From Escherichia coli (lineage in GTDB: Bacteria; Pseudomonadota; Gammaproteobacteria; Enterobacterales; Enterobacteriaceae), in NCBI RefSeq assembly GCF_030013595.1, contig NZ_CP122768.1: a stretch of DNA of 64,000 nt, one strand, 5' to 3'. Below the pieces are notes generated by a model. It was not told the origin of the DNA, did not search any database, and saw only the letters and a program-made list of their open reading frames with translations. Each line of letters opens with the position of its first letter. Positions within the stretch are counted from its first letter, which is position 1. A program made the position numbers and the translations under genes. Shown one piece after another: positions 38,504-63,954 of the stretch.

Positions 38504-38514
38504 GGAAAACCATC

Positions 38515-38766: not shown

Positions 38767-38770
38767 TTTG

Positions 38771-39352
38771 ATGTCGGGCATTCGCTCGCTACCGATGATT
38801 AAGTTGCTGACCGGATTATTGCTGCTCGTCTGGCCTTTTTTAATCTGGCTAGGTTTGGTGCATAACAGCCTGCACTGGCTGTTGCCGCTGATGGCGCTGT
38901 TGCTTTTATTGCGCCTGCGCCAGCCCCGTCGCCAGACGGGGCCGCTCCAGGTCGTCACAAAAATCGTTGCTGTTGTGGGCATTGTATTGTGTGTCTCCAG
39001 TTTTCTGTTGAAAACGTACCAGTTACTGCTGTTTTACCCGGTAGTGGTTAACGCAGTCATGCTGGCGGTTTTTGGCGGTTCGCTGCGGTCGACAATGCCG
39101 ATAGTTGAGCGGCTGGCACGTTTGCAGGAGCCAGACCTCCCGGAAAAGGCCGTGCGATATACCCGCCGCGTAACGCAGGTCTGGTGCCTGTTTTTTATTT
39201 TCAATGGCAGTATTGCGTTATTTACCACCTTGTATGGCAACATGCCCTTGTGGACAGCCTGGAACGGTATCATTGCTTACCTTCTGATAGGTTTCCTGAC
39301 TGCAGGGGAATGGCTGATACGTCGTAAGATGATCAAACGGAAAACACCATGA
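38771..39352 (+). CDS. apeG: integral membrane protein (COG4648-like)
   Basis: Four or more hydrophobic segments; ATG at 38771 preferred over the TTG at 38768 used by the ORF track. Confidence 0.6.
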   Translation: MSGIRSLPMIKLLTGLLLLVWPFLIWLGLVHNSLHWLLPLMALLLLLRLRQPRRQTGPLQVVTKIVAVVGIVLCVSSFLLKTYQLLLFYPVVVNAVMLAVFGGSLRSTMPIVERLARLQEPDLPEKAVRYTRRVTQVWCLFFIFNGSIALFTTLYGNMPLWTAWNGIIAYLLIGFLTAGEWLIRRKMIKRKTP

Positions 39353-40707
39353 ATCAGACTCTCTCACTTTCACAGTGGTTGACAGCCTCTCGCCCTGTAA
39401 CAACTCCTGTTGCCTGGCTTGGGGAATATACCTGGACACTGGGGCATCTGCGGCATGATGTAGCGCTTTTGATCGACCATTTACGCGACCAGCCAGGCAA
39501 TCGCTGGGCACTTTGTTTTGAAAACAGCTATCTTTTTATTGTAGCGTTGTTGGCCACGCTACACTCAGGTAAAATCCCGGTAATCCCGGGCCATAATCGC
39601 GCCGCTTTGTTAAATGTACAACGCTCTTTGTTTGATTGCGTCCTGAGTGATAAAAGGCTGGGCTGGAACGGTCCACAGTTTGTTGTAAGCACATCTCACC
39701 AGATGACGACCAGCACGATAGCCTTTGATGATATTGCTTCTGACGCGTTTATTGAACTTTTCACATCGGGTTCAACCGGACAACCAAAACAAATTGCAAA
39801 ACCTGTTATCAGCCTTGATCAAGAAGCAAACATGCTGGCAACTCACTTTGCAGACCGACTACTGGGCTGTCGTTTTGTAGCATCCGTGATGCCTCAGCAC
39901 CTGTATGGGCTAACTTTCCGTATTTTTTTACCCATGGCACTTGGCCTGCCATTGCATGCCGCAATGCTCTGGTATTCTGAGCAACTTGCCGCATTAAGCC
40001 ATACCTACCGCTATGCCTTTGTCAGCAGCCCGGCGTTCCTTAAGCGACTCGACCTTCATCTGACGCCTCCCCCAGTGGAAATGATTCTCTCTGCCGGCGG
40101 TATGCTACCATGGCAGGATGTAGAGAAAACTTCCACCTGGCTGAATATATGGCCCGATGAAATCTATGGTAGTACCGAAACAGGTATTCTCGCATGGCGT
40201 TACCGTCAACAGGATAATATCCCCTGGTTTACTTTTTCTGATGTTCATCTTTCACAGGAAAGTGAGGGGGTTCGTGTCTTTTCGCCACTAATCCCTGCTG
40301 AAGGATTGGTGCTTGACGATATGTTGCAATTCAATGAAAACGGTCAGTTCCACCTGATCGGACGACGTGGTCGAGTGGTAAAAATAGAGGAGAAGCGGAT
40401 ATCACTGGTTGAAATCGAACAACGACTTCTGGCACTTGACGGTATTATGGATGTCGCTGCAATACCATTAATACGCAATGGCCGCCAGGCTATCGGTGTC
40501 GTGGTTGTACCAAATAAAGAGGCCCGTCAAATATGGCAATGCTCCGGAGGGAAAACTCTGGAGTTGTCCTGGCGCAAAGCACTATTACCATGGCTTGAAC
40601 CTGTTGCAGTACCTCGTTACTGGCGCATTATTGATGAAATACCAGTAAACAGTATGAACAAGCGTGTCTATGCGCAATTACAGGAGTTATTTCATGATAC
40701 GCCATGA
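39349..40707 (+). CDS. apeH: adenylate-forming acyl/aryl-ACP (or CoA) ligase
   Basis: 452 aa with AMP-binding core motifs TSGSTGQPK and YGSTETG; ATGA overlap with apeG. Confidence 0.8.
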   Translation: MNQTLSLSQWLTASRPVTTPVAWLGEYTWTLGHLRHDVALLIDHLRDQPGNRWALCFENSYLFIVALLATLHSGKIPVIPGHNRAALLNVQRSLFDCVLSDKRLGWNGPQFVVSTSHQMTTSTIAFDDIASDAFIELFTSGSTGQPKQIAKPVISLDQEANMLATHFADRLLGCRFVASVMPQHLYGLTFRIFLPMALGLPLHAAMLWYSEQLAALSHTYRYAFVSSPAFLKRLDLHLTPPPVEMILSAGGMLPWQDVEKTSTWLNIWPDEIYGSTETGILAWRYRQQDNIPWFTFSDVHLSQESEGVRVFSPLIPAEGLVLDDMLQFNENGQFHLIGRRGRVVKIEEKRISLVEIEQRLLALDGIMDVAAIPLIRNGRQAIGVVVVPNKEARQIWQCSGGKTLELSWRKALLPWLEPVAVPRYWRIIDEIPVNSMNKRVYAQLQELFHDTP

Positions 40708-41047
40708 AATTGAGCGCCATCTGGTTCAACCGCAGGAGATGGAAATCGTTCTATACCTTGACCCGATGCTCTACTGGTTTAATGGTCATTTTGCCGTACA
40801 GCCTCTGTTACCAGGCGTGGCCCAGTTGGACTGGGTAATGCATTATGCTACCACGCTGCTTGCTCCGGGCTGGCGTTTTCGTAGTATCCAGAATGTTAAA
40901 TTTCTGGCGCCACTTATACCTGAGACGACTGTTACCCTGCAATTAACATGGCAGGAAACAAGTCAGGTACTCACTTTCTGCTATCAGCGTCACGACGGTG
41001 ACGCCCGCCACACCGCCAGTAGCGGGAAGATCCGTCTATGTCGGTAA
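40694..41047 (+). CDS. apeI: hotdog-fold 3-hydroxyacyl-ACP dehydratase
   Basis: About 117 aa FabA/FabZ-like size; start set at MIRHEIER overlapping apeH end. Confidence 0.6.
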   Translation: MIRHEIERHLVQPQEMEIVLYLDPMLYWFNGHFAVQPLLPGVAQLDWVMHYATTLLAPGWRFRSIQNVKFLAPLIPETTVTLQLTWQETSQVLTFCYQRHDGDARHTASSGKIRLCR

Positions 41048-42714
41048 ACTTTTCTCCCTGCGTGTTGATCCCCTGCTACAACCACGGCGCGATGATGCCG
41101 GGCGTGCTGGCGCGTCTTAAGCCATTTAATCTGCCCTGTATTGTGGTGGATGACGGCAGCGATGCCGCCACGCAACAGCAACTGGATAATCTGGTTAGCG
41201 AACAGCCTGGCGTGACCTTAATTCGCCTGGCAGAAAACGCAGGTAAAGGCGCAGCGGTGATGCGTGGCTTGCAGGCAGCGGCAGACGCAGGGTTCAGCCA
41301 TGCGGTGCAGGTGGATGCTGACGGTCAACATGCGATTGAAGATATCCCCAAACTGCTGGCACTCGCTGAACAACACCCTGTGGCGCTGATCTCCGGTCAG
41401 CCAATTTACGATGACTCCATTCCCCGCTCACGGCTGTACGGGCGCTGGGTCACCCACGTCTGGGTATGGATCGAAACGCTCTCCCTGCAACTGAAAGACA
41501 GCATGTGCGGTTTTCGCGTTTATCCGGTTGCGCCGACGCTGCAACTGGCAAAACGCGCCACCATCGGCAAGCGGATGGATTTCGACACCGAAGTGATGGT
41601 GCGCCTCTACTGGCAGGGAAATACCAGCTATTTCGTGCCGACCCGCGTCACCTATCCACTGGACGGGCTTTCGCATTTTGATGCCCTGAAAGATAACGTC
41701 CGCATCTCGCTCATGCACACGCGTCTGTTTTTCGGCATGTTGCCGCGTATTCCTTCACTGCTGATGTGCCACTCTTCCAGCCACTGGGCGCGGCAGAGTG
41801 AAGTTAAAGGGTTATGGGGAATGCGCCTGATGCTGCTGGTCTGGCGTCTGCTGGGAAGAACGGCGTTTACCGCGCTGCTTTACCCGGTGGTTGGCGTCTA
41901 CTGGCTCACCGCTGCTCGTGCGCGTAAAGCGTCGCAAGACTGGCTCGCCCGTGTGCGCCAACAACAACCACAGGCAGCAAAAATCAACAGCTATCAGCAC
42001 TTTCTACGTTTCGGCAACGCCATGCTCGACAAAATCGCCAGCTGGCGCGGCGAGCTGCAACTCGGGCGTGATGTGCTGTTTGCGCCAGGCGCAGAAGCGG
42101 CGCTTGACGTCCGCGATCCGCGCGGCAAATTGCTGCTGGCCTCACATCTTGGCGATGTGGAAGTGTGCCGGGCGCTGGCAAAAATTGAGGGCTACAAAAC
42201 CATTAACGCGCTGGTGTTTAGCGAAAACGCCCAACGCTTTAAACAGATAATGCAGGAGATGGCTCCCCAGGCAGGCATTAACCTGATGCCGGTAACAGAT
42301 ATCGGCCCGGAAACCGCCATCCTGCTGAAAGAGAAGCTGGATAACGGCGAATGGGTGGCGATTGTCGGTGACCGCATCGCCGTCACCCCGCAACGCGGCG
42401 GCGACTGGCGCGTCTGCTGGAGTCCGTTTATGGGCCAGCCTGCGCCCTTCCCACAGGGGCCGTTTATTCTCGCCTCTATTTTGCGCTGCCCGGTGAATCT
42501 GATTTTCGCCCTACGCCAGCACGGCAAGCTGCATATTCACTGCGAAACCTTTGCCGACCCGCTGCTGTTGCCGCGTGGCGAACGCCAACAGGCGCTGCAA
42601 AACGCTATCGACCACTACGCCGCGCGTCTGGAACATTACGCGCTCCAGTCGCCCCTCGACTGGTTTAATTTTTTCGATTTCTGGCAACTGCCGGAAATTC
42701 AGGACAAGGAGTAA
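41038..42714 (+). CDS. apeJ: bifunctional GT2 glycosyltransferase / LpxL-like lipid A-type acyltransferase fusion
   Basis: N-terminal family-2 GT features (CVLIPCYNHG, VVDDGSD, VDADGQH) followed by a C-terminal half resembling HtrB/MsbB late acyltransferases. Confidence 0.7.
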   Translation: MSVNFSPCVLIPCYNHGAMMPGVLARLKPFNLPCIVVDDGSDAATQQQLDNLVSEQPGVTLIRLAENAGKGAAVMRGLQAAADAGFSHAVQVDADGQHAIEDIPKLLALAEQHPVALISGQPIYDDSIPRSRLYGRWVTHVWVWIETLSLQLKDSMCGFRVYPVAPTLQLAKRATIGKRMDFDTEVMVRLYWQGNTSYFVPTRVTYPLDGLSHFDALKDNVRISLMHTRLFFGMLPRIPSLLMCHSSSHWARQSEVKGLWGMRLMLLVWRLLGRTAFTALLYPVVGVYWLTAARARKASQDWLARVRQQQPQAAKINSYQHFLRFGNAMLDKIASWRGELQLGRDVLFAPGAEAALDVRDPRGKLLLASHLGDVEVCRALAKIEGYKTINALVFSENAQRFKQIMQEMAPQAGINLMPVTDIGPETAILLKEKLDNGEWVAIVGDRIAVTPQRGGDWRVCWSPFMGQPAPFPQGPFILASILRCPVNLIFALRQHGKLHIHCETFADPLLLPRGERQQALQNAIDHYAARLEHYALQSPLDWFNFFDFWQLPEIQDKE

Positions 42715-42717
42715 AGG

Positions 42718-43140
42718 GTGCTTAACGATCCCCGATTTACCGCTGAAGTCGAGCTGACCATTCCCTTTCACGACGTCGATATGATGGGCGTGGCCTGGCA
42801 CGGTAACTATTTTCGCTACTTTGAAGTGGCCCGCGAGGCGCTGCTCAACCAGTTCAATTACGGCTATCGGCAGATGAAAGAGTCCGGTTATTTGTGGCCA
42901 GTGGTCGATGCGCGGGTGAAATATCGCCACGCCCTCACCTTTGAGCAACGCATCCGCGTGCGTGCGCATATCGAAGAGTTCGAAAACCGTCTGCGGATTG
43001 GCTATCAGATTTTCGATGCCGAAACGGGCAAACGCGCCACCACCGGATACACCATTCAGGTCGCAGTCGACGAGCAAAGCCGCGAACTGTGCTTTGTCAG
43101 CCCCGATATTCTGTTTGAACGCATGGGAGTCAAACCATGA
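42718..43140 (+). CDS. apeK: 4HBT/YbgC-type hotdog thioesterase
   Basis: 140 aa, GTG start; conserved N-terminal HDVD...GVAWHGNYFRYFE region typical of 4-hydroxybenzoyl-CoA thioesterase family. Confidence 0.75.
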   Translation: MLNDPRFTAEVELTIPFHDVDMMGVAWHGNYFRYFEVAREALLNQFNYGYRQMKESGYLWPVVDARVKYRHALTFEQRIRVRAHIEEFENRLRIGYQIFDAETGKRATTGYTIQVAVDEQSRELCFVSPDILFERMGVKP

Positions 43141-43742
43141 AATTTTTACCGCTGCTGGCGCTGCTGATTAGCCCGTTTGTGAGCGCCCTGACCCGGGACG
43201 ATCTTCAGCAACGCTTTACCGAACAACCGGTGATCCGCGCCCATTTCGATCAAACCCGGACGATTAAAGATCTGCCGCAGCCGCTGCGATCTCAGGGTCA
43301 GATGTTGATCGCCCGCGACCAGGGGTTATTGTGGGATCAAACCTCACCGTTCCCCATGCAACTATTACTGGACGATAAACGCATGGTGCAGGTGATCAAC
43401 GGTCAGCCGCCGCAAATCATCACGGCAGAAAACAACCCACAGATGTTCCAGTTTAACCACCTGCTGCGCGCGCTGTTCCAGGCCGATCGCAAAGTGCTGG
43501 AACAAAACTTCCGCGTCGAATTTGCCGACAAAGGCGAAGGCCGCTGGACGCTGCGCCTGACGCCGACCACCACGCCGCTGGACAAAATTTTCAACACCAT
43601 CGATCTCGCCGGGCAAACCTATCTGGAGAGCATTCAGCTTAATGATAAACAGGGCGATCGCACCGATATCGCTCTTACCCAACATCAACTGACACCAGCG
43701 CAACTGACCGATGACGAACGCCAACGCTTTGCCACCCAGTAA
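43137..43742 (+). CDS. apeL: LolA-like outer-membrane lipoprotein carrier protein
   Basis: 201 aa with signal peptide MKFLPLLALLISPFVSA; size and composition of LolA/LolB fold. Confidence 0.65.
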   Translation: MKFLPLLALLISPFVSALTRDDLQQRFTEQPVIRAHFDQTRTIKDLPQPLRSQGQMLIARDQGLLWDQTSPFPMQLLLDDKRMVQVINGQPPQIITAENNPQMFQFNHLLRALFQADRKVLEQNFRVEFADKGEGRWTLRLTPTTTPLDKIFNTIDLAGQTYLESIQLNDKQGDRTDIALTQHQLTPAQLTDDERQRFATQ

Positions 43743-46029
43743 ACGCCCCGCGCTGTTATGGGGGCTAGTCTGCCTGGTCATGGCGGCGGCGTTGCTGATC
43801 CTGCTGCCACAATCACGACTGAACAGTAGCGTGCTGGCTATGTTACCCAAACAGGCGATGGGCGATATTCCTCCGGCGCTGAATGACGGCTTTATGCAGC
43901 GTCTGGACCGCCAACTGGTGTGGCTGGTCAGCCCCGGTAAAGAGGCTAATCCCAGGGTGGCTCAGGAGTGGCTGACGCTGCTGCAAAAATCCGCTGCGCT
44001 CGGCGACATTAAAGGGCCAATGGATGCCGCCAGCCAGCAGGCGTGGGGAGCGTTTTTCTGGCAGCACCGCAACGGCCTGATTGACCCCGACACCCGCGCC
44101 CGCCTGCAAAATGGCGGCGAAGCGCAGGCGAAGTGGATCCTCTCCCAGCTTTATTCTGCGTTCTCCGGGGTAAGCGGCAAGGAGCTGCAAAACGATCCGC
44201 TGATGTTAATGCGCGGCTCGCAGCTGGCGATGGCGAAAAATGGCCAGCGTTTACGACTAATGGACGGCTGGCTGGTGACGCAGGATCCCCAGGGCAATTA
44301 CTGGTATCTGCTGCACGGCGAACTGGCGGGATCGTCGTTTGATATGCAGCAAACCCACCAGCTCATCACGACCCTGAATACGCTGGAAAAGGCTCTGAAA
44401 ACGCGTTACCCGCAGGCGCAGTTGCTCTCACGCGGCACGGTGTTTTACAGCGATTACGCCAGCCAACAGGCGAAGCAGGATATCTCCACCCTGGGCGTGG
44501 CAACGCTGCTGGGGGTGATATTGCTGATTGTGGCGGTGTTCCGCTCTTTGCGCCCGTTGCTGCTTTGCGTGATTTCCATCGGCATCGGCGCGCTGGCGGG
44601 AACGGCCGCCACATTGTTGATTTTCGGTGAATTACACCTGATGACGCTGGTGATGAGCATGAGCGTTATCGGCATTTCCGCTGACTACACGCTCTATTAT
44701 CTCACCGAGCGGATGGTGCACGGCAACGACGTTTCGCCGTGGCAAAGCCTGGCGAAAGTACGCAATGCCCTGCTGCTGGCGCTGCTCACAACCGTGGCGG
44801 CATATCTGATTATGATGCTCGCCCCCTTCCCCGGCATTCGCCAGATGGCGATTTTTGCCGCCGTCGGGTTGAGCGCCTCTTGTCTGACCGTCCTGTTCTG
44901 GCATCCGTGGCTGTGCCGTGGTCTGCCGGTGCGCCCGGTTCCGGCGATGGCGCTGATGCTACGCTGGCTGGCAGCGTGGCGGCGCAATAAAAAACTGTCG
45001 CGGGGTCTGCCCGTTGCGCTGGCGCTGTTTTCGCTGGCGGGGATGTCAATGCTGCGCGTCGATGACGATATCTCGCAGTTACAGGCGCTGCCGCAGCACA
45101 TTCTGGCGCAGGAGAAAGCCATTACCGCCCTGACCGGACAAAGCGTCGATCAAAAATGGTTTGTAGTTTACGGCGACTCCCCACAGCAAACATTGCGGCG
45201 ACTGGAGAAATATACCGCCTCACTTGAGTATGCGAAAAAAGAGGGGCTTATCAGCAACTACCGCACTATTCCGCTGAACTCCCTGGCGCGGCAGGAGGAA
45301 GACTTAGACCTGCTGAAAACGGCTGCCCCGACGGTAACAAAAGCACTGCAAAATGCAGGGCTGACGGCGGTGAAACCAGATCTCAACGCCATGCCGGTGA
45401 AGGTCGATGAATGGCTGGCAAGCCCCGCCAGTGAAGGCTGGCGTCTGCTGTGGCTGACGCTGGAAAACGGCGAAAGCGGTGTACTGGTGCCGGTTGAAGG
45501 GGTTAAAAGTAGCGCATTGTTGCAGGAAATCGCCAGCTATTACCCTTGCGGCATTGCCTGGGTTGATCGCAAAAGCTCCTTTGATGAATTGTTCGCACTT
45601 TACCGCTACGTCTTAACCGGCTTGTTGCTGGTGGCGCTGGCAGTGATTGCCTGCGGCGCAGTGGCCCGTCTCGGCTGGCGCAAAGGGCTTATCAGCCTGG
45701 TGCCTTCGGTGCTTTCGCTGGGCTGTGGTCTGGCGGTGCTGGCGATGAGCGGGCAGGCGGTGAATCTCTTTTCGCTGCTGGCGCTGGTGCTGGTGCTTGG
45801 CATCGGTATCAACTACACGCTGTTTTTCAGTAATCCGCGCGGTACACCGTTAACTTCGCTACTGGCGATCGCGCTGGCAATGCTCACCACCTTGCTGACG
45901 CTGGGAATGCTGGTATTCAGCGCCACCCAGGCCATCAGCAGTTTTGGCATTGTGCTGGTGAGCGGTATTTTCACCGCCTTCCTGCTTTCGCCGCTGGCTA
46001 TGCCCGATAAAAAGAGAACAAAAAAATGA
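43711..46029 (+). CDS. apeM: MMPL/RND-superfamily membrane exporter
   Basis: 772 aa with two hydrophobic TM bundles separated by soluble domains; start uncertain (ATG at 43711 or TTG at 43729). Confidence 0.75.
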   Translation: MTNANALPPSKRPALLWGLVCLVMAAALLILLPQSRLNSSVLAMLPKQAMGDIPPALNDGFMQRLDRQLVWLVSPGKEANPRVAQEWLTLLQKSAALGDIKGPMDAASQQAWGAFFWQHRNGLIDPDTRARLQNGGEAQAKWILSQLYSAFSGVSGKELQNDPLMLMRGSQLAMAKNGQRLRLMDGWLVTQDPQGNYWYLLHGELAGSSFDMQQTHQLITTLNTLEKALKTRYPQAQLLSRGTVFYSDYASQQAKQDISTLGVATLLGVILLIVAVFRSLRPLLLCVISIGIGALAGTAATLLIFGELHLMTLVMSMSVIGISADYTLYYLTERMVHGNDVSPWQSLAKVRNALLLALLTTVAAYLIMMLAPFPGIRQMAIFAAVGLSASCLTVLFWHPWLCRGLPVRPVPAMALMLRWLAAWRRNKKLSRGLPVALALFSLAGMSMLRVDDDISQLQALPQHILAQEKAITALTGQSVDQKWFVVYGDSPQQTLRRLEKYTASLEYAKKEGLISNYRTIPLNSLARQEEDLDLLKTAAPTVTKALQNAGLTAVKPDLNAMPVKVDEWLASPASEGWRLLWLTLENGESGVLVPVEGVKSSALLQEIASYYPCGIAWVDRKSSFDELFALYRYVLTGLLLVALAVIACGAVARLGWRKGLISLVPSVLSLGCGLAVLAMSGQAVNLFSLLALVLVLGIGINYTLFFSNPRGTPLTSLLAIALAMLTTLLTLGMLVFSATQAISSFGIVLVSGIFTAFLLSPLAMPDKKRTKK

Positions 46030-46610
46030 TCAAATCCACATTCTGGCGAGCGTTCGCCCTGACCGCTACGCTTATCCTCACCGGCTGTAGCCACTCGCAA
46101 CCAGAACAGGAAGGCCGCCCGCAGGCGTGGCTGCAACCTGGCACGCGCATCACGCTGCCGGCACCAGGGATTTCACCCGCAGTCAATTCGCAGCAACTGT
46201 TGACCGGCAGCTTCAACGGCAAAACCCAGTCGCTGTTAGTGATGCTTAACGCCGACGATCAGAAAATCACCCTTGCCGGGCTGTCGTCGGTCGGCATTCG
46301 CCTGTTTCTGGTGACCTACGATGCGCAAGGGCTACGCGCCGAGCAATCCATCGTCGTCCCACAGTTACCGCCCGCAAGTCAGGTACTGGCTGACGTGATG
46401 CTCAGCCACTGGCCGATTAGCGCCTGGGAGGCGCAACTTCCCGCAGGATGGACACTTCGCGACAACGGTGACAAACGCGAGCTGCGTAACGCCAGCGGCA
46501 AACTGGTCACGGAAATCACCTATCTGAATCGCCAGGGAAAACGCGTGCCAATCAGAATTGAGCAGCATGTCTTTAAATACCACATCACCATTCAATACTT
46601 AGGTGAATGA
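46026..46610 (+). CDS. apeN: DUF3261-type lipoprotein
   Basis: 194 aa, lipobox LTGCSHS; ATGA overlap with apeM. Confidence 0.6.
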   Translation: MIKSTFWRAFALTATLILTGCSHSQPEQEGRPQAWLQPGTRITLPAPGISPAVNSQQLLTGSFNGKTQSLLVMLNADDQKITLAGLSSVGIRLFLVTYDAQGLRAEQSIVVPQLPPASQVLADVMLSHWPISAWEAQLPAGWTLRDNGDKRELRNASGKLVTEITYLNRQGKRVPIRIEQHVFKYHITIQYLGE

Positions 46611-46611
46611 T

Positions 46612-47781
46612 ATGATTTATATTTCCGCCGTCGGCATGATCAACGCCCTGGGAAATAACCTTGACGAAATCGCAGCCAACCTGGCTCGCGGTGTCGCCCC
46701 CGGCATGCGCCCACGCGCAGGCTGGTTGCAGGGGCATCCGCAGGCGGTCCTGGCTGGCGTGGATGGCGAGCTTCCGCTTATCCCGGAAAAATTCGCTGCG
46801 CATCGCTCGCGCAACAATCAGATCCTGCTGGCGGCGCTGGCGCAGCTCCAGCCGCAGGTTGATGACGCTATCGCGAAATATGGCTGCGAGCGCATCGCGA
46901 TTGTGCTTGGCACCAGCACCTCCGGCCTGCATGAAGGCGACACGCACGTTAACCTGCACACCCACGGGCAGCCGAGCACCACGTGGCACTATGCACAACA
47001 AGAACTCGGCGATCCGTCGCGTTTTCTCAGCCACTGGCTGGCGCTCGACGGCCCGGCTTATACCCTTTCAACCGCCTGCTCCTCCAGTGCCAGAGCAATG
47101 ATCAGCGGGCGCAGGCTTATCGAAGCGGGGCTGGTCGATGCCGCCATTGTGGGTGGCGCAGACACCCTGAGCCGAATGCCGATTAACGGTTTTCACAGCC
47201 TCGAATCGCTCTCGCCAACCTTATGTCAGCCGTTTAGTCGTGACCGCGCAGGTATCACCATTGGTGAAGGGGCGGGGCTAATGCTGCTGACCCGGGAACC
47301 GCAGCCCATCGCGTTGCTGGGCGTTGGTGAATCGAGCGACGCTTACCATATTTCAGCCCCGCATCCGCAGGGCGAAGGAGCGATCCGCGCTATTAATCAG
47401 GCGCTGACCGATGCGCAGCTTACGCCGGATGACGTCGGCTATATCAACCTGCACGGCACCGCCACACAGCTCAACGACCAGATTGAATCAATGGTGGTTA
47501 ACGCCCTGTTTGGCGAACGCGTACCGTGCAGCTCCACCAAACATTTGACCGGACACACGCTCGGCGCGGCTGGCATTACCGAGGCGGCAATTAGTATGTT
47601 GATTTTACAGCGTGATTTACCGCTGCCCGCTCAGGACTTCAGCCTGTCGCCGCGCGATCCCACGCTGCCACCGTGTGGCATTATCGAAAAACCGCAGCCG
47701 CTGGCACGTCCGGTGATCCTGTCCAATTCCTTCGCCTTTGGCGGCAATAACGCCAGCATTCTGCTCGGGAGGGTTTCGTGA
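46612..47781 (+). CDS. apeO: beta-ketoacyl-ACP synthase (KS)
   Basis: Active-site motif STACSSSARAM plus LHGTATQ and GHTLGAAG histidines; start set at MIYISAVG (ORF track starts at GTG 46603). Confidence 0.85.
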   Translation: MIYISAVGMINALGNNLDEIAANLARGVAPGMRPRAGWLQGHPQAVLAGVDGELPLIPEKFAAHRSRNNQILLAALAQLQPQVDDAIAKYGCERIAIVLGTSTSGLHEGDTHVNLHTHGQPSTTWHYAQQELGDPSRFLSHWLALDGPAYTLSTACSSSARAMISGRRLIEAGLVDAAIVGGADTLSRMPINGFHSLESLSPTLCQPFSRDRAGITIGEGAGLMLLTREPQPIALLGVGESSDAYHISAPHPQGEGAIRAINQALTDAQLTPDDVGYINLHGTATQLNDQIESMVVNALFGERVPCSSTKHLTGHTLGAAGITEAAISMLILQRDLPLPAQDFSLSPRDPTLPPCGIIEKPQPLARPVILSNSFAFGGNNASILLGRVS

Positions 47782-48242
47782 GCCACTATTTATCCCCCGG
47801 CGCTTATCTGCCCCACGACGCGCCCATGTTACTGCTGGAAGACGTGGTGAGCGTCAGCGATGACAGCGCGGTGTGCCGCGTGACGGTTTCGCCCAGTGGC
47901 GTACTGGCACCGTTTCTCGACCCGGACGGCAATCTCCCTGGCTGGTTTGCCCTTGAACTGATGGCGCAAACCGTCGGCGTCTGGTCTGGCTGGCATCGCC
48001 ACCAGCAGGGCAAAAACAGTATTGAGTTAGGGATGATACTGGGCGCGCGTGAATTGCTTTGCACCACTGGCATTCTGCCCGCAGGCCAGACGCTGACCAT
48101 TACCGTCAAACTGCTGATGCAGGACGATCGCTTCGGCAGCTTTGAGTGCAGCATCAACGACGGCGAGGCGACGGGCCGCATTAACACCTTCCAGCCGACC
48201 GCGGAAGAACTTACCACCCTGTTTCAACAAGGAGCGTCCTGA
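47778..48242 (+). CDS. apeP: hotdog-fold 3-hydroxyacyl-ACP dehydratase
   Basis: 154 aa FabA-like; GTGA overlap with apeO stop. Confidence 0.65.
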   Translation: MSHYLSPGAYLPHDAPMLLLEDVVSVSDDSAVCRVTVSPSGVLAPFLDPDGNLPGWFALELMAQTVGVWSGWHRHQQGKNSIELGMILGARELLCTTGILPAGQTLTITVKLLMQDDRFGSFECSINDGEATGRINTFQPTAEELTTLFQQGAS

Positions 48243-48973
48243 TGAGTCGTTCAGTTCTGGTTACTGGTGCCAGCAAAGGCATTGGTCGCGCCATCGCCTG
48301 CAAGCTTGCGGCAGACGGCTTTAACATTGGCGTTCACTATCACCGTGACGCCACAGGCGCTCAGGAAACGCTGAATGCCATTGTCGCCAACGGGGGTAAC
48401 GGGCGTTTGCTCAGTTTCGACGTCGCAAACCGCGAACAGTGTCGGGAAGTGCTGGAGCATGAGATCGCGCAACACGGTGCCTGGTACGGCGTGGTCAGTA
48501 ACGCCGGGATCGCCCGCGATGCCGCTTTTCCGGCTTTAAGCGATGACGACTGGGATGCGGTGATCCACACCAACCTCGACAGTTTCTACAACGTCATTCA
48601 GCCGTGCATTATGCCAATGATCGGCGCGCGCCAGGGTGGGCGCATCATCACGCTGTCCTCGGTTTCCGGCGTAATGGGCAATCGCGGCCAGGTGAATTAC
48701 AGCGCAGCCAAAGCCGGAATTATCGGCGCAACAAAAGCACTGGCTATCGAACTCGCAAAGCGCAAAATCACCGTCAATTGCATCGCGCCAGGGCTTATTG
48801 ATACCGGGATGATCGAAATGGAAGAAAGCGCTCTGAAAGAGGCAATGTCGATGATCCCCATGAAACGTATGGGCCAGGCGGAAGAAGTTGCCGGGCTTGC
48901 CAGTTATTTAATGTCTGATATTGCGGGTTACGTCACCCGCCAGGTTATTTCCATCAACGGAGGGATGTTATGA
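48242..48973 (+). CDS. apeQ: SDR-family 3-oxoacyl-ACP reductase (FabG-like)
   Basis: Rossmann motif VTGASKGIGRAIA and catalytic YSAAK. Confidence 0.85.
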   Translation: MSRSVLVTGASKGIGRAIACKLAADGFNIGVHYHRDATGAQETLNAIVANGGNGRLLSFDVANREQCREVLEHEIAQHGAWYGVVSNAGIARDAAFPALSDDDWDAVIHTNLDSFYNVIQPCIMPMIGARQGGRIITLSSVSGVMGNRGQVNYSAAKAGIIGATKALAIELAKRKITVNCIAPGLIDTGMIEMEESALKEAMSMIPMKRMGQAEEVAGLASYLMSDIAGYVTRQVISINGGML

Positions 48974-50199
48974 CACGTCGCGTAGTGATTACAGGAATGG
49001 GCGGCGTGACTGCCTTTGGTGAAAACTGGCAGGACGTTTCTGCACGCTTACTGGCGTATGAAAATGCGGTGCGCAAAATGCCGGAGTGGCAGGTCTACGA
49101 TGGGCTGCACACCCTGCTTGGCGCGCCTGTTGATGATTTCACGCTACCGGAGCACTACACCCGCAAGCGTATCCGTGCGATGGGCCGCGTGTCGCAAATG
49201 TCGACCCGTGCCAGCGAGCTGGCGTTAGAGCAGGCAGGGTTGATTGGCGATCCGATATTAACCAGCGGCGAAACGGGCATTGCGTACGGTTCATCGACCG
49301 GCAGTACCGGTCCGGTGAGCGAATTTGCCACCATGCTGACTGAAAAGCACACGAACAACATCACTGGCACCACCTATGTGCAGATGATGCCGCACACCAC
49401 CGCTGTTAATACTGGCCTCTTTTTCGGCCTGCGCGGGCGGGTGATCCCAACCTCCAGCGCCTGTACCTCCGGCAGCCAGGCGATCGGTTATGCGTGGGAA
49501 GCCATTCGCCACGGTTATCAAACGGTGATGGTTGCCGGTGGTGCCGAAGAGTTATGCCCTTCAGAAGCAGCAGTGTTTGATACCCTTTTTGCCACCAGCC
49601 AGCACAATGATGCGCCGAAAACCACACCTTCACCGTTCGATGAAAACCGCGACGGACTGGTGATTGGTGAAGGCGCAGGTACGCTCATTCTCGAAGAACT
49701 GGAGCATGCCAAAGCGCGCGGCGCGACCATTTACGGTGAAATCGTCGGCTTTGCGACGAACTGCGACGCGGCACATATTACCCAGCCGCAGCGCGAAACC
49801 ATGCAGTATTGTATGGAGCAATCGCTGAAAATCGCAGGGTTAAGCGCACAAGATATCGGCTATATTTCAGCGCATGGTACGGCGACCGATCGCGGTGATA
49901 TGGCAGAAAGTCTGGCGACAGCAACCATTTACGGTGATAATGTGCCGCTCTCCTCGCTGAAAAGTTATTTTGGTCATACGCTTGGTGCCTGTGGCGCGCT
50001 CGAAGCCTGGATGAGTCTGCAAATGATGCGCGAAGGTTGGTTTGCGCCTACGCTAAACCTGAATAAACCAGACCCGAATTGTGGCGCGCTGGATTACATC
50101 ATGCATGAAGCCCGCAGGGTTGATTGTGAGTTTTTGCAGAGTAACAACTTTGCCTTTGGCGGCATTAATACATCCATCATTATTAAGCGCTGGCCCTGA
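48970..50199 (+). CDS. apeR: beta-ketoacyl-ACP synthase (FabB/FabF-like)
   Basis: 409 aa with TSSACTSGSQAIG active-site Cys, AHGTATD and GHTLGACG histidines; ATGA overlap with apeQ. Confidence 0.85.
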   Translation: MTRRVVITGMGGVTAFGENWQDVSARLLAYENAVRKMPEWQVYDGLHTLLGAPVDDFTLPEHYTRKRIRAMGRVSQMSTRASELALEQAGLIGDPILTSGETGIAYGSSTGSTGPVSEFATMLTEKHTNNITGTTYVQMMPHTTAVNTGLFFGLRGRVIPTSSACTSGSQAIGYAWEAIRHGYQTVMVAGGAEELCPSEAAVFDTLFATSQHNDAPKTTPSPFDENRDGLVIGEGAGTLILEELEHAKARGATIYGEIVGFATNCDAAHITQPQRETMQYCMEQSLKIAGLSAQDIGYISAHGTATDRGDMAESLATATIYGDNVPLSSLKSYFGHTLGACGALEAWMSLQMMREGWFAPTLNLNKPDPNCGALDYIMHEARRVDCEFLQSNNFAFGGINTSIIIKRWP

Positions 50200-51038
50200 G
50201 TTATACAACCACATGGACATCCCATGTGGTGATTCTTCAAAAAATCTGAATCAATGAATATGAACCTCAAATTCTCTTACGCATACTGAAGAGCATTCCG
50301 TATAACGATTCAGCAGACAAAACTTTATCAGTCCACACGAATCAACGGATGCACAGATGACACGCCCGGTTATCACCGGGCAATGGTTGCCATAACGGGT
50401 AACATAAGGGACTGAACAGTTGTCTTTAGCGCAACGAACTGATCTAACGTACCTGAACGGACAACCTGAAAACAGTCTTTCACCCTGCATTGTCCGCCAG
50501 TGCTTATTACCAACCACGTCTGTTGCAGTAAAGTAATCAGTTGCGAACATTATTTATCAATCGTGACGCTGGCTCGCGCATGGCAGAAAAGGTCCTGACT
50601 GAGCAACAACAGGCATCGTACTGTTGCTGCTCCATGTTGTTTATATGAACGCATCCCGTTTGCAAGGCTTCCGTGTTTTTGACGTTGACGGTAGATTGCT
50701 GCTCTATATCCTTATTGCAGCCGGTGCTGCGGGCCTCAATGAGATTCGCTGACTCTCGCCTTATTCACGCAACGAGCTTTAAGCTCAGAAAAACATCCAA
50801 GTTTGGTGAGTCACAGTCTTACCTGTCGTTGTCATCAATATAGGAATGGATAATCTGGAGAGCGATACTGCAGGCTGATATTGCGGTTTTGCGACAAGTT
50901 TTTAGCATCCGCTTCTACGCCAAATACCTGAAGTAGGAATGGATGCGTTAGCAGCATACATCCGGAACTGCGCGGGGAATAGCCGGAAACGGCTATCCCT
51001 ACCACAATAGCTAACTTTGTAATAGCGCTCTTTTAGGC

Positions 51039-52070
51039 TCATGTACTCTGACGTAATTCTATCTGGTAGTTGAATTGCACGATACGCGACTCTTCTGATT
51101 CATCATGATTATTATTCAATAGTCCAATCAGTAACTTACCTGTCTCTATCCCCATTTTTTTGTAGTCAATACGGATGGATGTCAAAGTTGGGTGTGTTTG
51201 ATCGCAATTGTCTGAACCGTCAAGACAAGCTACAGCGATATTTCCAGGGATTTTTAACAAACGCCGCTGGCACTCAAACATTATACCCAGCGCAATCTCT
51301 TCGTGGCTGCAAATCACAGCATCCAGCTCTGGTTGTCGCAGTAATATCTCGTTTAATGCGTAACGCCCCAATTGCAGACTTGCGGCATCCGGCATGGTGA
51401 TAACAAGATCAGTGTTCTGGTAATGGCTCAGCATTGCTTTATGCCAGCCGTTCAGTTGCTGACGTTGCAGGCGGTTGTCCATATGCGCACCGATAAATCC
51501 GATATTCTTATAACCCTGCTCCAGCAGATGTTCGGTCAGTTTATGTGATGCTTCAAAAAATGCTGTTTCGATGGTAATTTGAGCCGGACTGAAAGGGGAA
51601 CCGATAACGTTAATGGTAGGTATATTTGTTTTCTCGAGTATCTGGTGAGTTTTATCAGCCAACTGAGAACCAAAAATAACTAACGCCGCCGGGTTGCCTT
51701 GAAGAAGCGTCATCAGAATTTCAGCTTCTTTGAGCTGATTATACTCATGACACCCAAGCAGTAGCTGGAATTCATTTTTATTAAGCACCTGCTGTAATGA
51801 CTGCATAAAGCGGGAGCTGGCTTTATCTGTCAGGGAAGGAACCAGTACGGCGACTGTATGACTGTGACCAGATGCAAGGGCGCCAGCAGTTCTGTTGGGA
51901 ATATAACCCAACTCTTCTACGGCCTGTTCTATCTTTTCCCTCAGCTTGTCAGAAACCTGTTCCGGTGTTCTCAGCGCGCGGGAAACGGTCATAGTTCCGA
52001 CACCTGCAAAGTTAGCGACCTCCTGCAGCGTCACCCGTCCGGTACCACGGCGCTTACGTGTTTTTTCCAT
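51039..52070 (-). CDS. LacI-family transcriptional regulator
   Basis: N-terminal HTH VTLQEVANFAGVGTMTVSRAL and periplasmic-binding-protein-like effector domain; divergent from the PTS genes. Confidence 0.85.
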   Translation of the reverse strand: MEKTRKRRGTGRVTLQEVANFAGVGTMTVSRALRTPEQVSDKLREKIEQAVEELGYIPNRTAGALASGHSHTVAVLVPSLTDKASSRFMQSLQQVLNKNEFQLLLGCHEYNQLKEAEILMTLLQGNPAALVIFGSQLADKTHQILEKTNIPTINVIGSPFSPAQITIETAFFEASHKLTEHLLEQGYKNIGFIGAHMDNRLQRQQLNGWHKAMLSHYQNTDLVITMPDAASLQLGRYALNEILLRQPELDAVICSHEEIALGIMFECQRRLLKIPGNIAVACLDGSDNCDQTHPTLTSIRIDYKKMGIETGKLLIGLLNNNHDESEESRIVQFNYQIELRQST

Positions 52071-54571: not shown

Positions 54572-54856
54572 TTACCTCGCGTAAAAAACGGGGTAAGGCC
54601 GCTCATCCAGCGTCATCTCCACAGGTAATAATTCAACGCCAATGCCAGAAGAGTTCGTTACCGGAAGACGCCGTGATATACGCCCTTTGATCAGCGAGAG
54701 CCTGAGCCATTTGAACAGAAGATTATCATTGATATCATGCTCCCGGGCAATACGGGCAACAGAACCCCTTGGTTGTAAAGCCAGTTTAACCATTTGAAGT
54801 TTAAACTCATTTGAAAATGACCTGCGGGGTTCAACTGATAATGTTTTTTGTTCCAT
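54572..54856 (-). mobile_element. IS3-family transposase OrfA-like fragment
   Basis: 94-aa ORF with HTH transposase-8 pattern (FSNEFKLQMVKLALQPRGSVARIAREHDINDNLLFKWLR) but no adjacent OrfB or inverted repeats identified. Confidence 0.5.
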
Positions 54857-55277
54857 AACAGGTGTCCACTAGTTGAAAAGGTGGGTACCTATGTTACCAA
54901 TACTGGCTTAATGGCTACATACAGCAGTCGGTTTACGCATACACTTTTATAGTGCACTCCGGCCTCATGAATATAACGGTGGATTACCGCCGAACGAATC
55001 GGAAAATAGATACTGGAAAAAAACTGAAATTGTGACCAGTTTTTGTTGACCACTACAAATAAATAAAAGAGTTGCAGTGCTTGCTCGGTAAGAAAACAAT
55101 GGAGGTTAAGCTCCTCAAAGAAGCTGTGGAGTACACCACTCTACAGTAGTTGCGCAAATTTGGAGTGGACGATAATGTGATCGTCTATAAGGGCAACGCT
55201 ATCATAGTCTTGTCCTGGCGGGTAAAAAAACGCGCTTACCTTAACGATAAGCGCGCCGCTGTTCAGGCCTTGAGTGG

Positions 55278-60392: not shown

Positions 60393-61727
60393 ATGAGTTC
60401 TGCCAAGAAGATCGGGCTATTTGCCTGTACCGGTGTTGTTGCCGGTAATATGATGGGGAGCGGTATTGCATTATTACCTGCGAACCTAGCAAGTATCGGT
60501 GGTATTGCTATCTGGGGTTGGATTATCTCTATTATTGGTGCAATGTCGCTGGCGTATGTATATGCCCGACTGGCAACAAAAAACCCGCAACAAGGTGGCC
60601 CAATTGCTTATGCCGGAGAAATTTCCCCTGCATTTGGTTTTCAGACAGGTGTTCTTTATTACCATGCTAACTGGATTGGTAACCTGGCGATTGGTATTAC
60701 CGCTGTATCTTATCTTTCCACCTTCTTCCCAGTATTAAATGATCCTGTTCCGGCGGGTATCGCCTGTATTGCTATCGTCTGGGTATTTACCTTTGTAAAT
60801 ATGCTCGGCGGTACCTGGGTAAGCCGTTTAACCACTATTGGTCTGGTGCTGGTTCTTATTCCTGTGGTAATGACAGCTATTGTTGGCTGGCATTGGTTTG
60901 ATGCTGCGACTTATGCTGCTAACTGGAATACTGCGGATACCACCGATGGTCATGCGATCATTAAAAGTATTCTGCTCTGCCTGTGGGCCTTCGTGGGTGT
61001 TGAATCCGCAGCTGTAAGTACTGGTATGGTTAAAAACCCGAAACGTACCGTTCCGCTGGCAACCATGCTGGGTACTGGTTTAGCAGGTATTGTTTATATC
61101 GCTGCGACTCAGGTGCTTTCCGGTATGTATCCGTCTTCTGTAATGGCAGCTTCCGGTGCTCCGTTTGCAATCAGTGCTTCAACTATCCTCGGTAACTGGG
61201 CTGCGCCGCTGGTTTCTGCATTCACCGCCTTTGCGTGCCTGACCTCTCTGGGCTCCTGGATGATGTTGGTAGGCCAGGCAGGTGTACGTGCCGCTAACGA
61301 CGGTAACTTCCCGAAAGTTTATGGTGAAGTCGACAGCAACGGTATTCCGAAAAAAGGTCTGCTGCTGGCTGCAGTGAAAATGACTGCCCTGATGATCCTC
61401 ATCACTCTGATGAACTCTGCCGGTGGTAAAGCATCTGACCTGTTCGGTGAACTGACCGGTATCGCAGTACTGCTGACTATGCTGCCGTACTTCTACTCTT
61501 GCGTTGACCTGATTCGTTTTGAAGGCGTTAACATCCGCAACTTTGTCAGCCTGATCTGCTCTGTACTGGGTTGCGTGTTCTGCTTCATCGCGCTGATGGG
61601 CGCAAGCTCCTTCGAGCTGGCAGGTACCTTCATCGTCAGCCTGATTATCCTGATGTTCTACGCTCGCAAAATGCACGAGCGCCAGAGCCACTCAATGGAT
61701 AACCACACAGCGTCTAACGCACATTAA
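60393..61727 (+). CDS. cadB: lysine/cadaverine antiporter CadB
   Basis: 444 aa APC-family transporter upstream of cadA. Confidence 0.95.
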   Translation: MSSAKKIGLFACTGVVAGNMMGSGIALLPANLASIGGIAIWGWIISIIGAMSLAYVYARLATKNPQQGGPIAYAGEISPAFGFQTGVLYYHANWIGNLAIGITAVSYLSTFFPVLNDPVPAGIACIAIVWVFTFVNMLGGTWVSRLTTIGLVLVLIPVVMTAIVGWHWFDAATYAANWNTADTTDGHAIIKSILLCLWAFVGVESAAVSTGMVKNPKRTVPLATMLGTGLAGIVYIAATQVLSGMYPSSVMAASGAPFAISASTILGNWAAPLVSAFTAFACLTSLGSWMMLVGQAGVRAANDGNFPKVYGEVDSNGIPKKGLLLAAVKMTALMILITLMNSAGGKASDLFGELTGIAVLLTMLPYFYSCVDLIRFEGVNIRNFVSLICSVLGCVFCFIALMGASSFELAGTFIVSLIILMFYARKMHERQSHSMDNHTASNAH

Positions 61728-61742
61728 TTAAAAGTATTTTCC

Positions 61743-61790
61743 GAGGCTCCTCCTTTCATTTTGTCCCATGTGTTGGGAGGGGCCTTTTTT
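61743..61790 (+). terminator. putative attenuating terminator between cadB and cadA
   Basis: Imperfect GC-rich inverted repeat ggctcctcc...gggaggggcc followed by tttttt. Confidence 0.45.
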
Positions 61791-61806
61791 ACCTGGAGAT
61801 ATGACT

Positions 61807-63954
61807 ATGAACGTTATTGCAATATTGAATCACATGGGGGTTTATTTTAAAGAAGAACCCATCCGTGAACTTCATCGCGCGCTTGAACGTCTGAACTTCC
61901 AGATTGTTTACCCGAACGACCGTGACGACTTATTAAAACTGATCGAAAACAATGCGCGTCTGTGCGGCGTTATTTTTGACTGGGATAAATATAATCTCGA
62001 GCTGTGCGAAGAAATTAGCAAAATGAACGAGAACCTGCCGTTGTACGCGTTCGCTAATACGTATTCCACTCTCGATGTAAGCCTGAATGACCTGCGTTTA
62101 CAGATTAGCTTCTTTGAATATGCGCTGGGTGCTGCTGAAGATATTGCTAACAAGATCAAGCAGACCACTGACGAATATATCAACACTATTCTGCCTCCGC
62201 TGACCAAAGCACTGTTTAAATATGTTCGTGAAGGTAAATATACTTTCTGTACTCCTGGTCACATGGGCGGTACTGCATTCCAGAAAAGCCCGGTAGGTAG
62301 CCTGTTCTATGATTTCTTTGGTCCGAACACCATGAAATCTGATATTTCCATTTCAGTATCTGAACTGGGTTCTCTGCTGGATCACAGTGGTCCACACAAA
62401 GAAGCAGAACAGTATATCGCTCGCGTCTTTAACGCAGACCGCAGCTACATGGTGACCAACGGTACTTCCACTGCGAACAAAATTGTTGGTATGTACTCTG
62501 CTCCAGCAGGCAGCACCATTCTGATTGACCGTAACTGCCACAAATCGCTGACCCACCTGATGATGATGAGCGATGTTACGCCAATCTATTTCCGCCCGAC
62601 CCGTAACGCTTACGGTATTCTTGGTGGTATCCCACAGAGTGAATTCCAGCACGCTACCATTGCTAAGCGCGTGAAAGAAACACCAAACGCAACCTGGCCG
62701 GTACATGCTGTAATTACTAACTCTACCTATGATGGTCTGCTGTACAACACCGACTTCATCAAGAAAACACTGGATGTGAAATCCATCCACTTTGACTCCG
62801 CGTGGGTGCCTTACACCAACTTCTCACCGATTTACGAAGGTAAATGCGGTATGAGCGGTGGCCGTGTAGAAGGGAAAGTGATTTACGAAACCCAGTCTAC
62901 TCACAAACTGCTGGCGGCGTTCTCTCAGGCTTCCATGATCCACGTTAAAGGTGACGTAAACGAAGAAACCTTTAACGAAGCCTACATGATGCACACCACC
63001 ACTTCTCCGCACTACGGTATCGTGGCGTCCACTGAAACCGCTGCGGCGATGATGAAAGGCAATGCAGGTAAGCGTCTGATCAACGGTTCCATTGAACGTG
63101 CGATCAAATTCCGTAAAGAGATCAAACGTCTGAGAACGGAATCTGATGGCTGGTTCTTTGATGTATGGCAGCCGGATCATATCGATACGACTGAATGCTG
63201 GCCGCTGCGTTCTGACAGCACCTGGCACGGCTTCAAAAACATCGATAACGAGCACATGTATCTTGACCCGATCAAAGTCACCCTGCTGACTCCGGGGATG
63301 GAAAAAGACGGCACCATGAGCGACTTTGGTATTCCGGCCAGCATCGTGGCGAAATACCTCGACGAACATGGCATCGTTGTTGAGAAAACCGGTCCGTATA
63401 ACCTGCTGTTCCTGTTCAGCATCGGTATCGATAAGACCAAAGCACTGAGCCTGCTGCGTGCTCTGACAGACTTCAAACGTGCGTTCGATCTGAACCTGCG
63501 TGTGAAAAACATGCTGCCGTCTCTGTATCGTGAAGATCCTGAATTCTATGAAAACATGCGTATTCAGGAACTGGCTCAGAATATCCACAAACTGATTGTT
63601 CACCACAATCTGCCGGATCTGATGTATCGCGCATTTGAAGTTCTGCCGACCATGGTAATGACTCCGTATGCTGCGTTCCAGAAAGAGCTGCACGGTATGA
63701 CCGAAGAAGTTTACCTCGACGAAATGGTAGGTCGTATTAACGCCAATATGATCCTTCCGTATCCGCCGGGAGTTCCTCTGGTAATGCCGGGTGAAATGAT
63801 CACCGAAGAAAGCCGTCCGGTTCTGGAGTTCCTGCAGATGCTGTGTGAAATCGGCGCTCACTATCCGGGCTTTGAAACCGATATTCACGGTGCATACCGT
63901 CAGGCTGATGGCCGCTATACCGTTAAGGTATTGAAAGAAGAAAGCAAAAAATAA
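61807..63954 (+). CDS. cadA: inducible lysine decarboxylase CadA
   Basis: Start at MNVIAILNHMGVYFKEEP (715 aa); PLP-binding region with STHKLL present. Confidence 0.97.
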   Translation: MNVIAILNHMGVYFKEEPIRELHRALERLNFQIVYPNDRDDLLKLIENNARLCGVIFDWDKYNLELCEEISKMNENLPLYAFANTYSTLDVSLNDLRLQISFFEYALGAAEDIANKIKQTTDEYINTILPPLTKALFKYVREGKYTFCTPGHMGGTAFQKSPVGSLFYDFFGPNTMKSDISISVSELGSLLDHSGPHKEAEQYIARVFNADRSYMVTNGTSTANKIVGMYSAPAGSTILIDRNCHKSLTHLMMMSDVTPIYFRPTRNAYGILGGIPQSEFQHATIAKRVKETPNATWPVHAVITNSTYDGLLYNTDFIKKTLDVKSIHFDSAWVPYTNFSPIYEGKCGMSGGRVEGKVIYETQSTHKLLAAFSQASMIHVKGDVNEETFNEAYMMHTTTSPHYGIVASTETAAAMMKGNAGKRLINGSIERAIKFRKEIKRLRTESDGWFFDVWQPDHIDTTECWPLRSDSTWHGFKNIDNEHMYLDPIKVTLLTPGMEKDGTMSDFGIPASIVAKYLDEHGIVVEKTGPYNLLFLFSIGIDKTKALSLLRALTDFKRAFDLNLRVKNMLPSLYREDPEFYENMRIQELAQNIHKLIVHHNLPDLMYRAFEVLPTMVMTPYAAFQKELHGMTEEVYLDEMVGRINANMILPYPPGVPLVMPGEMITEESRPVLEFLQMLCEIGAHYPGFETDIHGAYRQADGRYTVKVLKEESKK

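Follow-up and report, generated by a model that had tools for sequence, protein, structure and literature searches.

The spacer between an aryl-polyene-type cluster and a lacI-family gene in an Escherichia coli tRNA-Phe island resolves almost completely into truncated genes, insertion sequence pieces, and a group II intron tail

The window analyzed here is a stretch of 64,000 nucleotides from Escherichia coli (contig NZ_CP122768.1, assembly GCF_030013595.1), and the region studied is a mosaic tRNA-Phe genomic island with its own integrase. The tRNA-Phe gene and the tyrosine integrase gene are followed, in order, by an IS1 pseudogene, the fec operon, truncated cdiA and cdiB genes, an aryl-polyene cluster, the spacer described below, and a lacI-PTS module. 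Beyond the latter lie a transposase fragment, sugar-utilization genes, and a YagK/YfjJ gene that IS2 interrupts. This arrangement resembles that of other mosaic tRNA-Phe (pheU/pheV) islands of E. coli, which hold decayed insertion sequences (ISs) and pseudogenes at their module joints: tRNA-Phe comes first and a tyrosine integrase second, and the cargo modules (fec, cdiBA remnants, aryl-polyene, and lacI-PTS) are separated by fragments of the IS1, IS2, IS110-family, and YagK/YfjJ types. We found no difference in kind from such islands. Specific to this one are the combination and order of the fragments and a RefSeq annotation that records just one of the fragments in the spacer.

Several other elements were observed elsewhere in the window. 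The YagK/YfjJ-domain gene split by IS2 (61633-63538) is, like the pseudogene in the spacer, an island-backbone gene inactivated by an IS. Across the lacI-PTS module from the spacer, a weak match to the Rfam AfaR small RNA (54839-55043, plus strand; 33 bits against a gathering threshold of 100, E = 0.065) adjoins a 285-bp transposase remnant, and positions 54947-55058 are an 82% match to IS-associated DNA on plasmid pTW14425. A Guanidine-II (mini-ykkC) riboswitch at 8646-8692 (minus strand; 50.4 bits, above threshold) lies upstream of sugE and is a known, expected element.

The spacer is bounded by a ketoacyl-ACP synthase gene on the plus strand and a LacI-family regulator gene on the minus strand, which converge on it. 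Because the β-ketoacyl-ACP synthase gene, the last of the aryl-polyene-type cluster, ends at 50199 and the stop codon of the LacI-family gene occupies 51039-51041, the gap extends from 50200 to 51038 (839 bp). The lacI promoter is on the opposite side of its gene, in a region common with the divergent PTS genes. The spacer sequence is 100% identical over the query in E. coli O141:H4 strain P13-6, for which PGAP annotates only one feature in it, a pseudogene at the equivalent of window positions 50373-50642. The longest open reading frame (ORF) encodes 99 amino acids (50251-50550, minus strand). The original prediction had seen no convincing coding potential here beyond this ORF, and we likewise found no intact gene; the comparison with other genomes that it had proposed as a way of detecting a lost gene uncovered truncated genes and no intact conserved gene in the spacer. 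The features that we assigned are as follows.

22562-22637: tRNA-Phe, the island integration site, followed by the tyrosine integrase gene
50200-50269, plus strand: 3' non-coding tail of the aryl-polyene-type module with hairpin 1 (comparison with FEA3 and AST216)
50270-50284, minus strand: first five codons (MRKRI) of an ECs1377-family gene, truncated at the module junction (codons read from the sequence)
50285-50372 (88 bp), no strand: backbone intergenic DNA from the stop of the PF27752 gene to the start of the ECs1377 gene, collinear with loci L002, L003, and L004
50373-50642, minus strand: PF27752-family pseudogene, retaining 90 C-terminal codons out of 170 (PGAP, tblastn)
50643-50840, minus strand: ISEc11-like IS1111-group element (IS110 family), of which the terminal 198 bp at the right end remain (homology, mapped terminus)
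50841-50912, minus strand: internal codons 133-157 of an ISEc21-like IS110-family transposase (blastn, tblastn)
50910-51008, plus strand: 3' end of a group II intron, truncated at its 5' side (alignment to relatives, RNAalifold)
50910-50936, plus strand: last eight reverse transcriptase (RT)/maturase codons and the stop codon, RFYAKYLK-stop
50937-50968, plus strand: intron domain V, with the catalytic AGC triad destroyed
50969-51008, plus strand: intron domain VI, the stem of which (50976-50999) is hairpin 2
51009-51038, no strand: 30 bp of lacI flank, from the intron 3' end to the lacI-family stop codon

Two of the pieces are remnants of island-backbone genes. The ECs1377 remnant (50284-50270, minus strand) consists of an ATG and four further codons, with a stop provided by the aryl-polyene tail. 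In strain FEA3, the ECs1377-family coding sequence (L002 5384-6007) encodes 207 aa, scores 317.9 bits against NF052300 (cutoff 190), and starts at the equivalent of window position 50284; a protein of about 207 aa is what this family calls for, and five codons of it are left in the spacer. The FEA3 protein also gave a weak winged-helix match. The PF27752 pseudogene lacks its N terminus and is interrupted by one internal stop codon at 50550-50552, in agreement with the PGAP annotation of P13-6, so that in place of an intact ORF of about 170 codons the spacer holds 90. The gene is intact in strain 3908 (WP_001167450.1, 170 aa; tblastn against the pseudogene, E = 2e-44). The translated pseudogene reads KQHGAATVRCLLLLSQDLFCHARASVTIDK, stop, CSQLITLLQQTW and ends in LMLPVMATIAR, and the intact 3908 protein reads EQHGEATIRCLLLLSQASICHLRVSATVDEECSQVVDLLQQTW and has the same LMLPVMATIAR end. 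The PF27752 assignment was taken from precomputed family labels of homologues, some of which are named "inovirus Gp2 family protein"; the intact 170-aa protein itself had no match in NCBIfam or in a Pfam set that did not contain the PF27752 model. An extension of the pseudogene to about 50699, to which the tblastn alignment ran (residue 53), was rejected because IS DNA with 78-87% identity to its relatives and an exact terminus begins at 50643. A scar of gene loss, one of the possibilities raised in the original prediction, is what these two truncated genes represent.

The DNA from 50643 to 50840 is 78-84% identical to segments of DA33137 (L008) and pTW14425 (L007) that follow a 339-aa IS110-family transposase gene. 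A further match is to pINV (L009), a Serratia plasmid carries the stretch at 87% identity, and relatives (78-87%) occur on many enterobacterial plasmids and some chromosomes. In DA33137, the related segment is located between ydhF and ydhL, directly downstream of an intact 339-aa transposase. Mapped against the empty K-12 site, the intact DA33137 element measures 1430 bp (L008 3000-4429), has 13-nt subterminal inverted repeats (ATGAACGCATCCC and GGGATGCGTTCAT), and contains a 273-bp non-coding region (NCR) after tnp. The architecture of this element shows the hallmarks of the IS1111 group and matches ISEc11. The latter combines a 339-aa transposase with a downstream NCR encoding a seekRNA in a total of 1443 bp; the NCR-derived RNA functions in trans, and its native promoter is formed at the circular junction only, or else transcription reads through from tnp (Siddiquee et al. 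2024, PMC11187229).

The intact relative shares with ISEc11 the 339-aa transposase, an NCR (here 273 bp) downstream of tnp, the subterminal inverted repeats, insertion without a clear target duplication, and short NCR stretches complementary to the flank. It differs in its length (1430 bp as mapped here compared with the 1443 bp reported) and in its targets, which do not resemble the one published for ISEc11 (GTGAAAATACTG, a sequence also absent from the window). Because length and targets differ, we regard the parent element as a relative of ISEc11 and not demonstrably as ISEc11 itself.

Of such an element, the window retains just 198 of the 273 bp that make up the 3' non-coding region and the right end. 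Their terminus at 50643 (TATATGAACGCATCCC) matches the end mapped in DA33137 against the K-12 empty site, and the 13-nt subterminal inverted repeat ATGAACGCATCCC at 50647-50659 recurs without change at both ends of the intact copy. The subterminal repeat and defined terminus of the IS1111 group are thereby both present, but the DEDD transposase and the full seekRNA-type NCR are not, as 198 of 273 bp are left; no transposase similarity for an IS1111-type element was found within the window. The other edge, at about 50840, was considered as a natural boundary of the element and rejected, being a breakpoint of the window's own inside the IS non-coding region. The stretch that best complements the right flank occupies the same NCR position, beside a conserved hairpin, in all four copies that were compared; it is 8 nt long in pTW14425 (L007), 7 nt in DA33137 (L008), 5 nt in pINV (L009), and 5 nt in the window. 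This guide-like segment suggests that insertion at this site was RNA-guided.

As a separate observation, in three unrelated contexts 8-10 nt separate the ISEc11-like right end from the start codon of a gene that follows in the same orientation, namely ydhF, vapB, and ushA (right-end sites L008 2991-3000, L007 2993-3001, and L009 2992-3001, with 50634-50643 in the window). At the empty ydhF site of K-12, the insertion point falls between a Shine-Dalgarno-like AAGAGGA and the ATG. Insertion immediately before start codons suggests that the element either targets sites resembling a ribosome-binding site or drives expression outward into the gene that follows.

Adjoining this remnant is a fragment of a second IS. 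Positions 50841-50912 share 87% identity with ISEc21 in blastn (L006 2501-2576) and encode, on the minus strand, RMLKTCRKTAISACSIALQIIHSYI, of which 20 of 25 residues are identical to ISEc21 residues 133-157 (tblastn, E = 2e-8). BLAST placed the left edge at 50837, leaving an ambiguous or microhomologous overlap of 1-4 nt with the IS1111 piece. About 800 genomes hold 324 bp of this IS110 fragment; in one of them, strain 1283 (L005), PGAP annotates it as an IS110-family pseudogene. In the window, the IS110 sequence to the left of about 50840 has been replaced by the backbone and IS1111 pieces. The fragment is therefore ISEc21-like in sequence (87% DNA and 80% protein identity over codons 133-157) but differs from ISEc21 in that 25 codons are all that is left: the full IS110-group transposase gene with its catalytic domain, the upstream non-coding region, and the element ends are missing.

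The last piece before the lacI flank was identified through a 24-nt domain V core. A first pattern, TTCTACGCCAAATACCN{14,18}ATGCGTTAGCAGC, had given no match in a scan of genome contigs, and the 24-nt core, scanned in one genome per species, matched 24 loci across Gammaproteobacteria, Betaproteobacteria, Desulfobacterota, and Planctomycetota, many of them multi-copy or at contig ends. In Psychromonas arctica (L036), the motif falls inside an Rfam RF00029 match (domains V-VI; 41.7 bits, cutoff 40), with a D1-D4-6 match and a 476-aa ORF upstream. This ORF scores 342 bits against TIGR04416 and has the C terminus PRIVHPYPEQRFYAKYPR (QRFYAKYPR-stop). The RF00029 match ends in CCGCGAC, equivalent to the CCACAAT that ends at 51008 in the window, a homologous 3' end. 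When ten copies (the window and nine relatives) were folded together with RNAalifold, the helices of domains V and VI were recovered, with seven compensatory pairs in domain VI; the stem of domain VI (50976-50999) is hairpin 2, gggaatagccggaaacggctatccc.

Compared with D1-D4-6-type group II introns such as the one in P. arctica, the window copy is alike in its C-terminal RT/maturase codons, its domain V sequence, its domain VI helix, and its 3' end at the homologous position. It differs in lacking domains I-IV and nearly all of the ORF, the intact RT/maturase being reduced to its last eight codons, and in the loss of the AGC triad. Domain V should be a hairpin of about 34 nt with a catalytic AGC triad and a 2-nt bulge; here, GAGCCGG has become GAA-TGG through a 1-nt deletion and substitutions, and pairing is lost at alignment columns 14/44 and 16/42. 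No D1-D4 match from Rfam was obtained in the spacer and no RF00029 match in the window at E ≤ 1. As the RF00029 model does not report the window copy, its assignment is based on the alignment to relatives. A domain V devoid of the AGC triad means that the remnant is dead, and, judging by its sequence, the window copy is an intron fragment and not a functional member of the class, incapable of splicing or mobility.

The intron remnant and the lacI flank travel together: 937 genomes cover at least 80% of 50905-51045, and the 30-bp flank always accompanies the lacI-family gene. The intron stretch also occurs in two unrelated intergenic regions of E. coli at 83% and 76% identity. A REP-like or MITE repeat, considered for 50913-51008 on account of these 76-83% copies, was superseded by the group II intron identification.

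Further relatives of this intron were seen in other genomes. Two similar 3' remnants of about 95 bp and of the same intron type are present in other E. coli (L012 3786-4758 and L013 3803-4201), one in the gap downstream of cdiA, among short ORFs that include one annotated "hemagglutinin," and the other next to a locus for a fimbrial usher; frameshifted C-terminal RT codons are still recognizable in the L012 copy. Strain 1283 has a second, almost complete group II intron (L005 1955-3752) with Rfam D1-D4 matches, an RF00029 match at 3681-3752, and an RT/maturase gene broken into two ORFs; at its 3' end, this intron borders directly on the IS110 fragment, which is flanked there by intron sequence on both sides. 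In Desulfobotulus alkaliphilus, seven copies of the domain V motif were found (L027-L033), and in one of them (L029 1827-2496) a D1-D4 match (1827-2048) and domain V (from about 2390) are about 350 bp apart, which implies that multi-copy, ORF-less group II intron derivatives are probably present in this genome. The 24-nt domain V core is identical across bacteria of several phyla.

The left part of the spacer belongs to the aryl-polyene-type module, the limits of which were set by comparison with two strains. The window and FEA3 (L002) align at 98% identity as far as 34741, and the match resumes from 50270; where the window carries 34742-50269 (15,528 bp), FEA3 has 751 bp with the ECs1377-family gene (L002 5242-5992). 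AST216 (L014) has the module in common at 99.6% identity up to exactly 50269, beyond which it carries a divergent (76%) allele of the next gene, full-length but frameshifted. The module tail at 50200-50269 has a GC content of 0.36, and no direct or inverted repeats were seen at the two module junctions. Of 5426 complete E. coli genomes, 144 cover at least 80% of a 91-bp probe across the right junction, and others contain its left half or its right half only. At this island position, the alternative in other genomes is cdiBA together with the ECs1377-family gene; truncated cdiA and cdiB genes were noted just upstream of the module in the window (33354-34662). A joint between two acquired modules had also been foreseen in the original prediction, and it is real, with the aryl-polyene module ending at 50269; the complexity of the site was understated, as it is built of at least six pieces and not two.

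The junctions between these pieces are nested by frequency. The intron remnant with the lacI flank is found in 937 genomes, the junctions of the PF27752 remnant, IS1111 end, and IS110 fragment in about 350-361, and the aryl-polyene junction, innermost of the set, in 144. This nesting suggests that decay of the intron and IS110 came first, fusion to the backbone second, and arrival of the aryl-polyene module last, an order read from the genome counts per junction alone and not from a phylogeny. In such a history, the 3' end of the lacI-PTS module would have gained two neighbors, a group II intron (or a copy already truncated at its 5' side) and an IS110 element of the ISEc21-like type, both of which were truncated there. 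Separately, an ISEc11-like IS1111-group element would have inserted into about codon 82 of the PF27752-family gene. An illegitimate deletion or recombination may then have joined a point 198 bp inside the IS1111 element to codon 157 of IS110, so that the PF27752 gene lost its N-terminal half and each of the two elements its transposase gene. In the last step, the 15.5-kb aryl-polyene module would have replaced 751 bp with the ECs1377-family gene, creating the 50269/50270 junction.

The spacer thus resolves almost completely into dead pieces, namely truncated island genes, two IS pieces, and the tail of a group II intron, and as such it is an ordinary feature of an already known kind. We consider it very probable that it is non-functional debris at a recombination-prone joint in a genomic island, and it is expected to give rise to neither a protein nor a dedicated regulatory RNA.

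The alternative that fares best concerns the inverted repeats that the original prediction had pointed out near 50210 and 50975, both of which are present. Hairpin 1 has arms at 50208-50216 and 50222-50230 with nine perfect pairs and begins 9 nt after the synthase stop codon; hairpin 2 has 10-nt arms at 50976-50985 and 50990-50999 that are 90% complementary. When the spacer was shuffled 500 times with its dinucleotide content preserved, only 2.2% of the shuffles produced a perfect 9-bp stem, indicating that the hairpins go beyond chance. They could have been co-opted as transcription stops or 3'-end stabilizers, hairpin 1 for the aryl-polyene operon and domain VI, on the minus strand, for the lacI-family gene. 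Each lies just downstream of the respective stop codon (9 nt for hairpin 1, about 40 nt on the minus strand for domain VI), hairpin 1 accompanies the aryl-polyene module in AST216, and the 152 nt from 50887 to 51038 fold modestly better than shuffled sequences (z = -2.0 and -2.4, the minus strand giving -2.4). Such a use would also be compatible with an origin as debris. An intrinsic (Rho-independent) terminator, however, consists of a GC-rich hairpin and a U-run after it, and neither hairpin is followed by a U-run; terminator-like sites in 50100-51150 numbered 0, compared with 1.0 expected in shuffles. Moreover, the domain VI stem is conserved in the relatives because it is part of the intron and not because of lacI. 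We hold this co-option to be unlikely; the hairpins would, at most, slow read-through from the two convergent genes.

A functional regulatory RNA, in the form of either a divergent molybdenum cofactor (Moco) riboswitch at 50887-51028 on the plus strand or an orphan seekRNA guiding a transposase supplied in trans, is very improbable. The riboswitch was suggested by a match to Rfam RF01055 of 24.8 bits (E = 0.0013 when 601 bases were searched), in which two similarly spaced hairpins and a GGAAAC loop resemble the family. This score is below the gathering threshold of 36, and over the whole window E rises to 0.14. The columns of P1 are flagged as non-pairs, the conserved CCUCC is altered, and the plus strand continues into the antisense strand of lacI, not into a molybdenum-related gene. 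The matched bases belong to the IS110 fragment and to intron domains V and VI, and we rejected the match as a chance resemblance to the intron hairpins. For an orphan seekRNA speak the conserved hairpin region retained in the IS remnant, the flank complement at the same NCR position in all four copies, and the activity in trans of the RNA derived from the ISEc11 NCR (PMC11187229). Against it, about 75 bp of the NCR are missing on the transposase-proximal (5') side, and both native sources of a promoter, the circular junction and tnp (PMC11187229), are absent here. Promoter-like sites were no more frequent than chance (one, compared with 1.7 expected in shuffles). The small-RNA locus that had also been proposed for this spacer found no support, as neither the promoter nor the terminator scan rose above the shuffles and the sole Rfam match was below threshold.

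Because the IS1111-type remnant keeps the whole conserved hairpin and the guide-like part, a residual RNA can nevertheless be imagined. If read-through from the lacI-family gene were to reach the remnant (50643-50840, minus strand), an orphan seekRNA-like RNA might result, and domain VI may in addition have been co-opted as the 3' hairpin of the lacI-family mRNA. We would assign this scenario only a slight chance; if it were true, the RNA could load onto a related transposase encoded elsewhere, on the chromosome or a plasmid, and bias the targeting of that element.

Least credible of all is a genuine small protein gene, whether the 99-aa minus-strand ORF (50251-50550) or one of the ORFs of 42-56 aa: the ORFs exist and one RefSeq genome, FCI1, has a "hypothetical protein" call at the equivalent of 50643-51038, but the 99-aa ORF is an artefact that lies out of frame over the true PF27752 pseudogene and crosses the 50269/50270 module junction, the small ORFs fall on DNA that is non-coding in the IS or forms RNA domains of the intron, and PGAP leaves all of these ORFs unannotated in the identical genome.

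With non-functional debris as the preferred reading, the spacer is unsuited to mining for small RNAs or small proteins in spite of its "empty" look. Its value lies in annotation and in a caution against over-reading sub-threshold RNA matches in such regions, a tempting riboswitch match being explained here as the relic of a group II intron. The boundaries of the aryl-polyene module are now fixed at base level, on the left at 34741/34742 and on the right at 50269/50270, and the module is an alternative to the ECs1377-family gene at this island position. The nested junctions provide markers that could serve to trace the assembly of the tRNA-Phe island across E. coli lineages.
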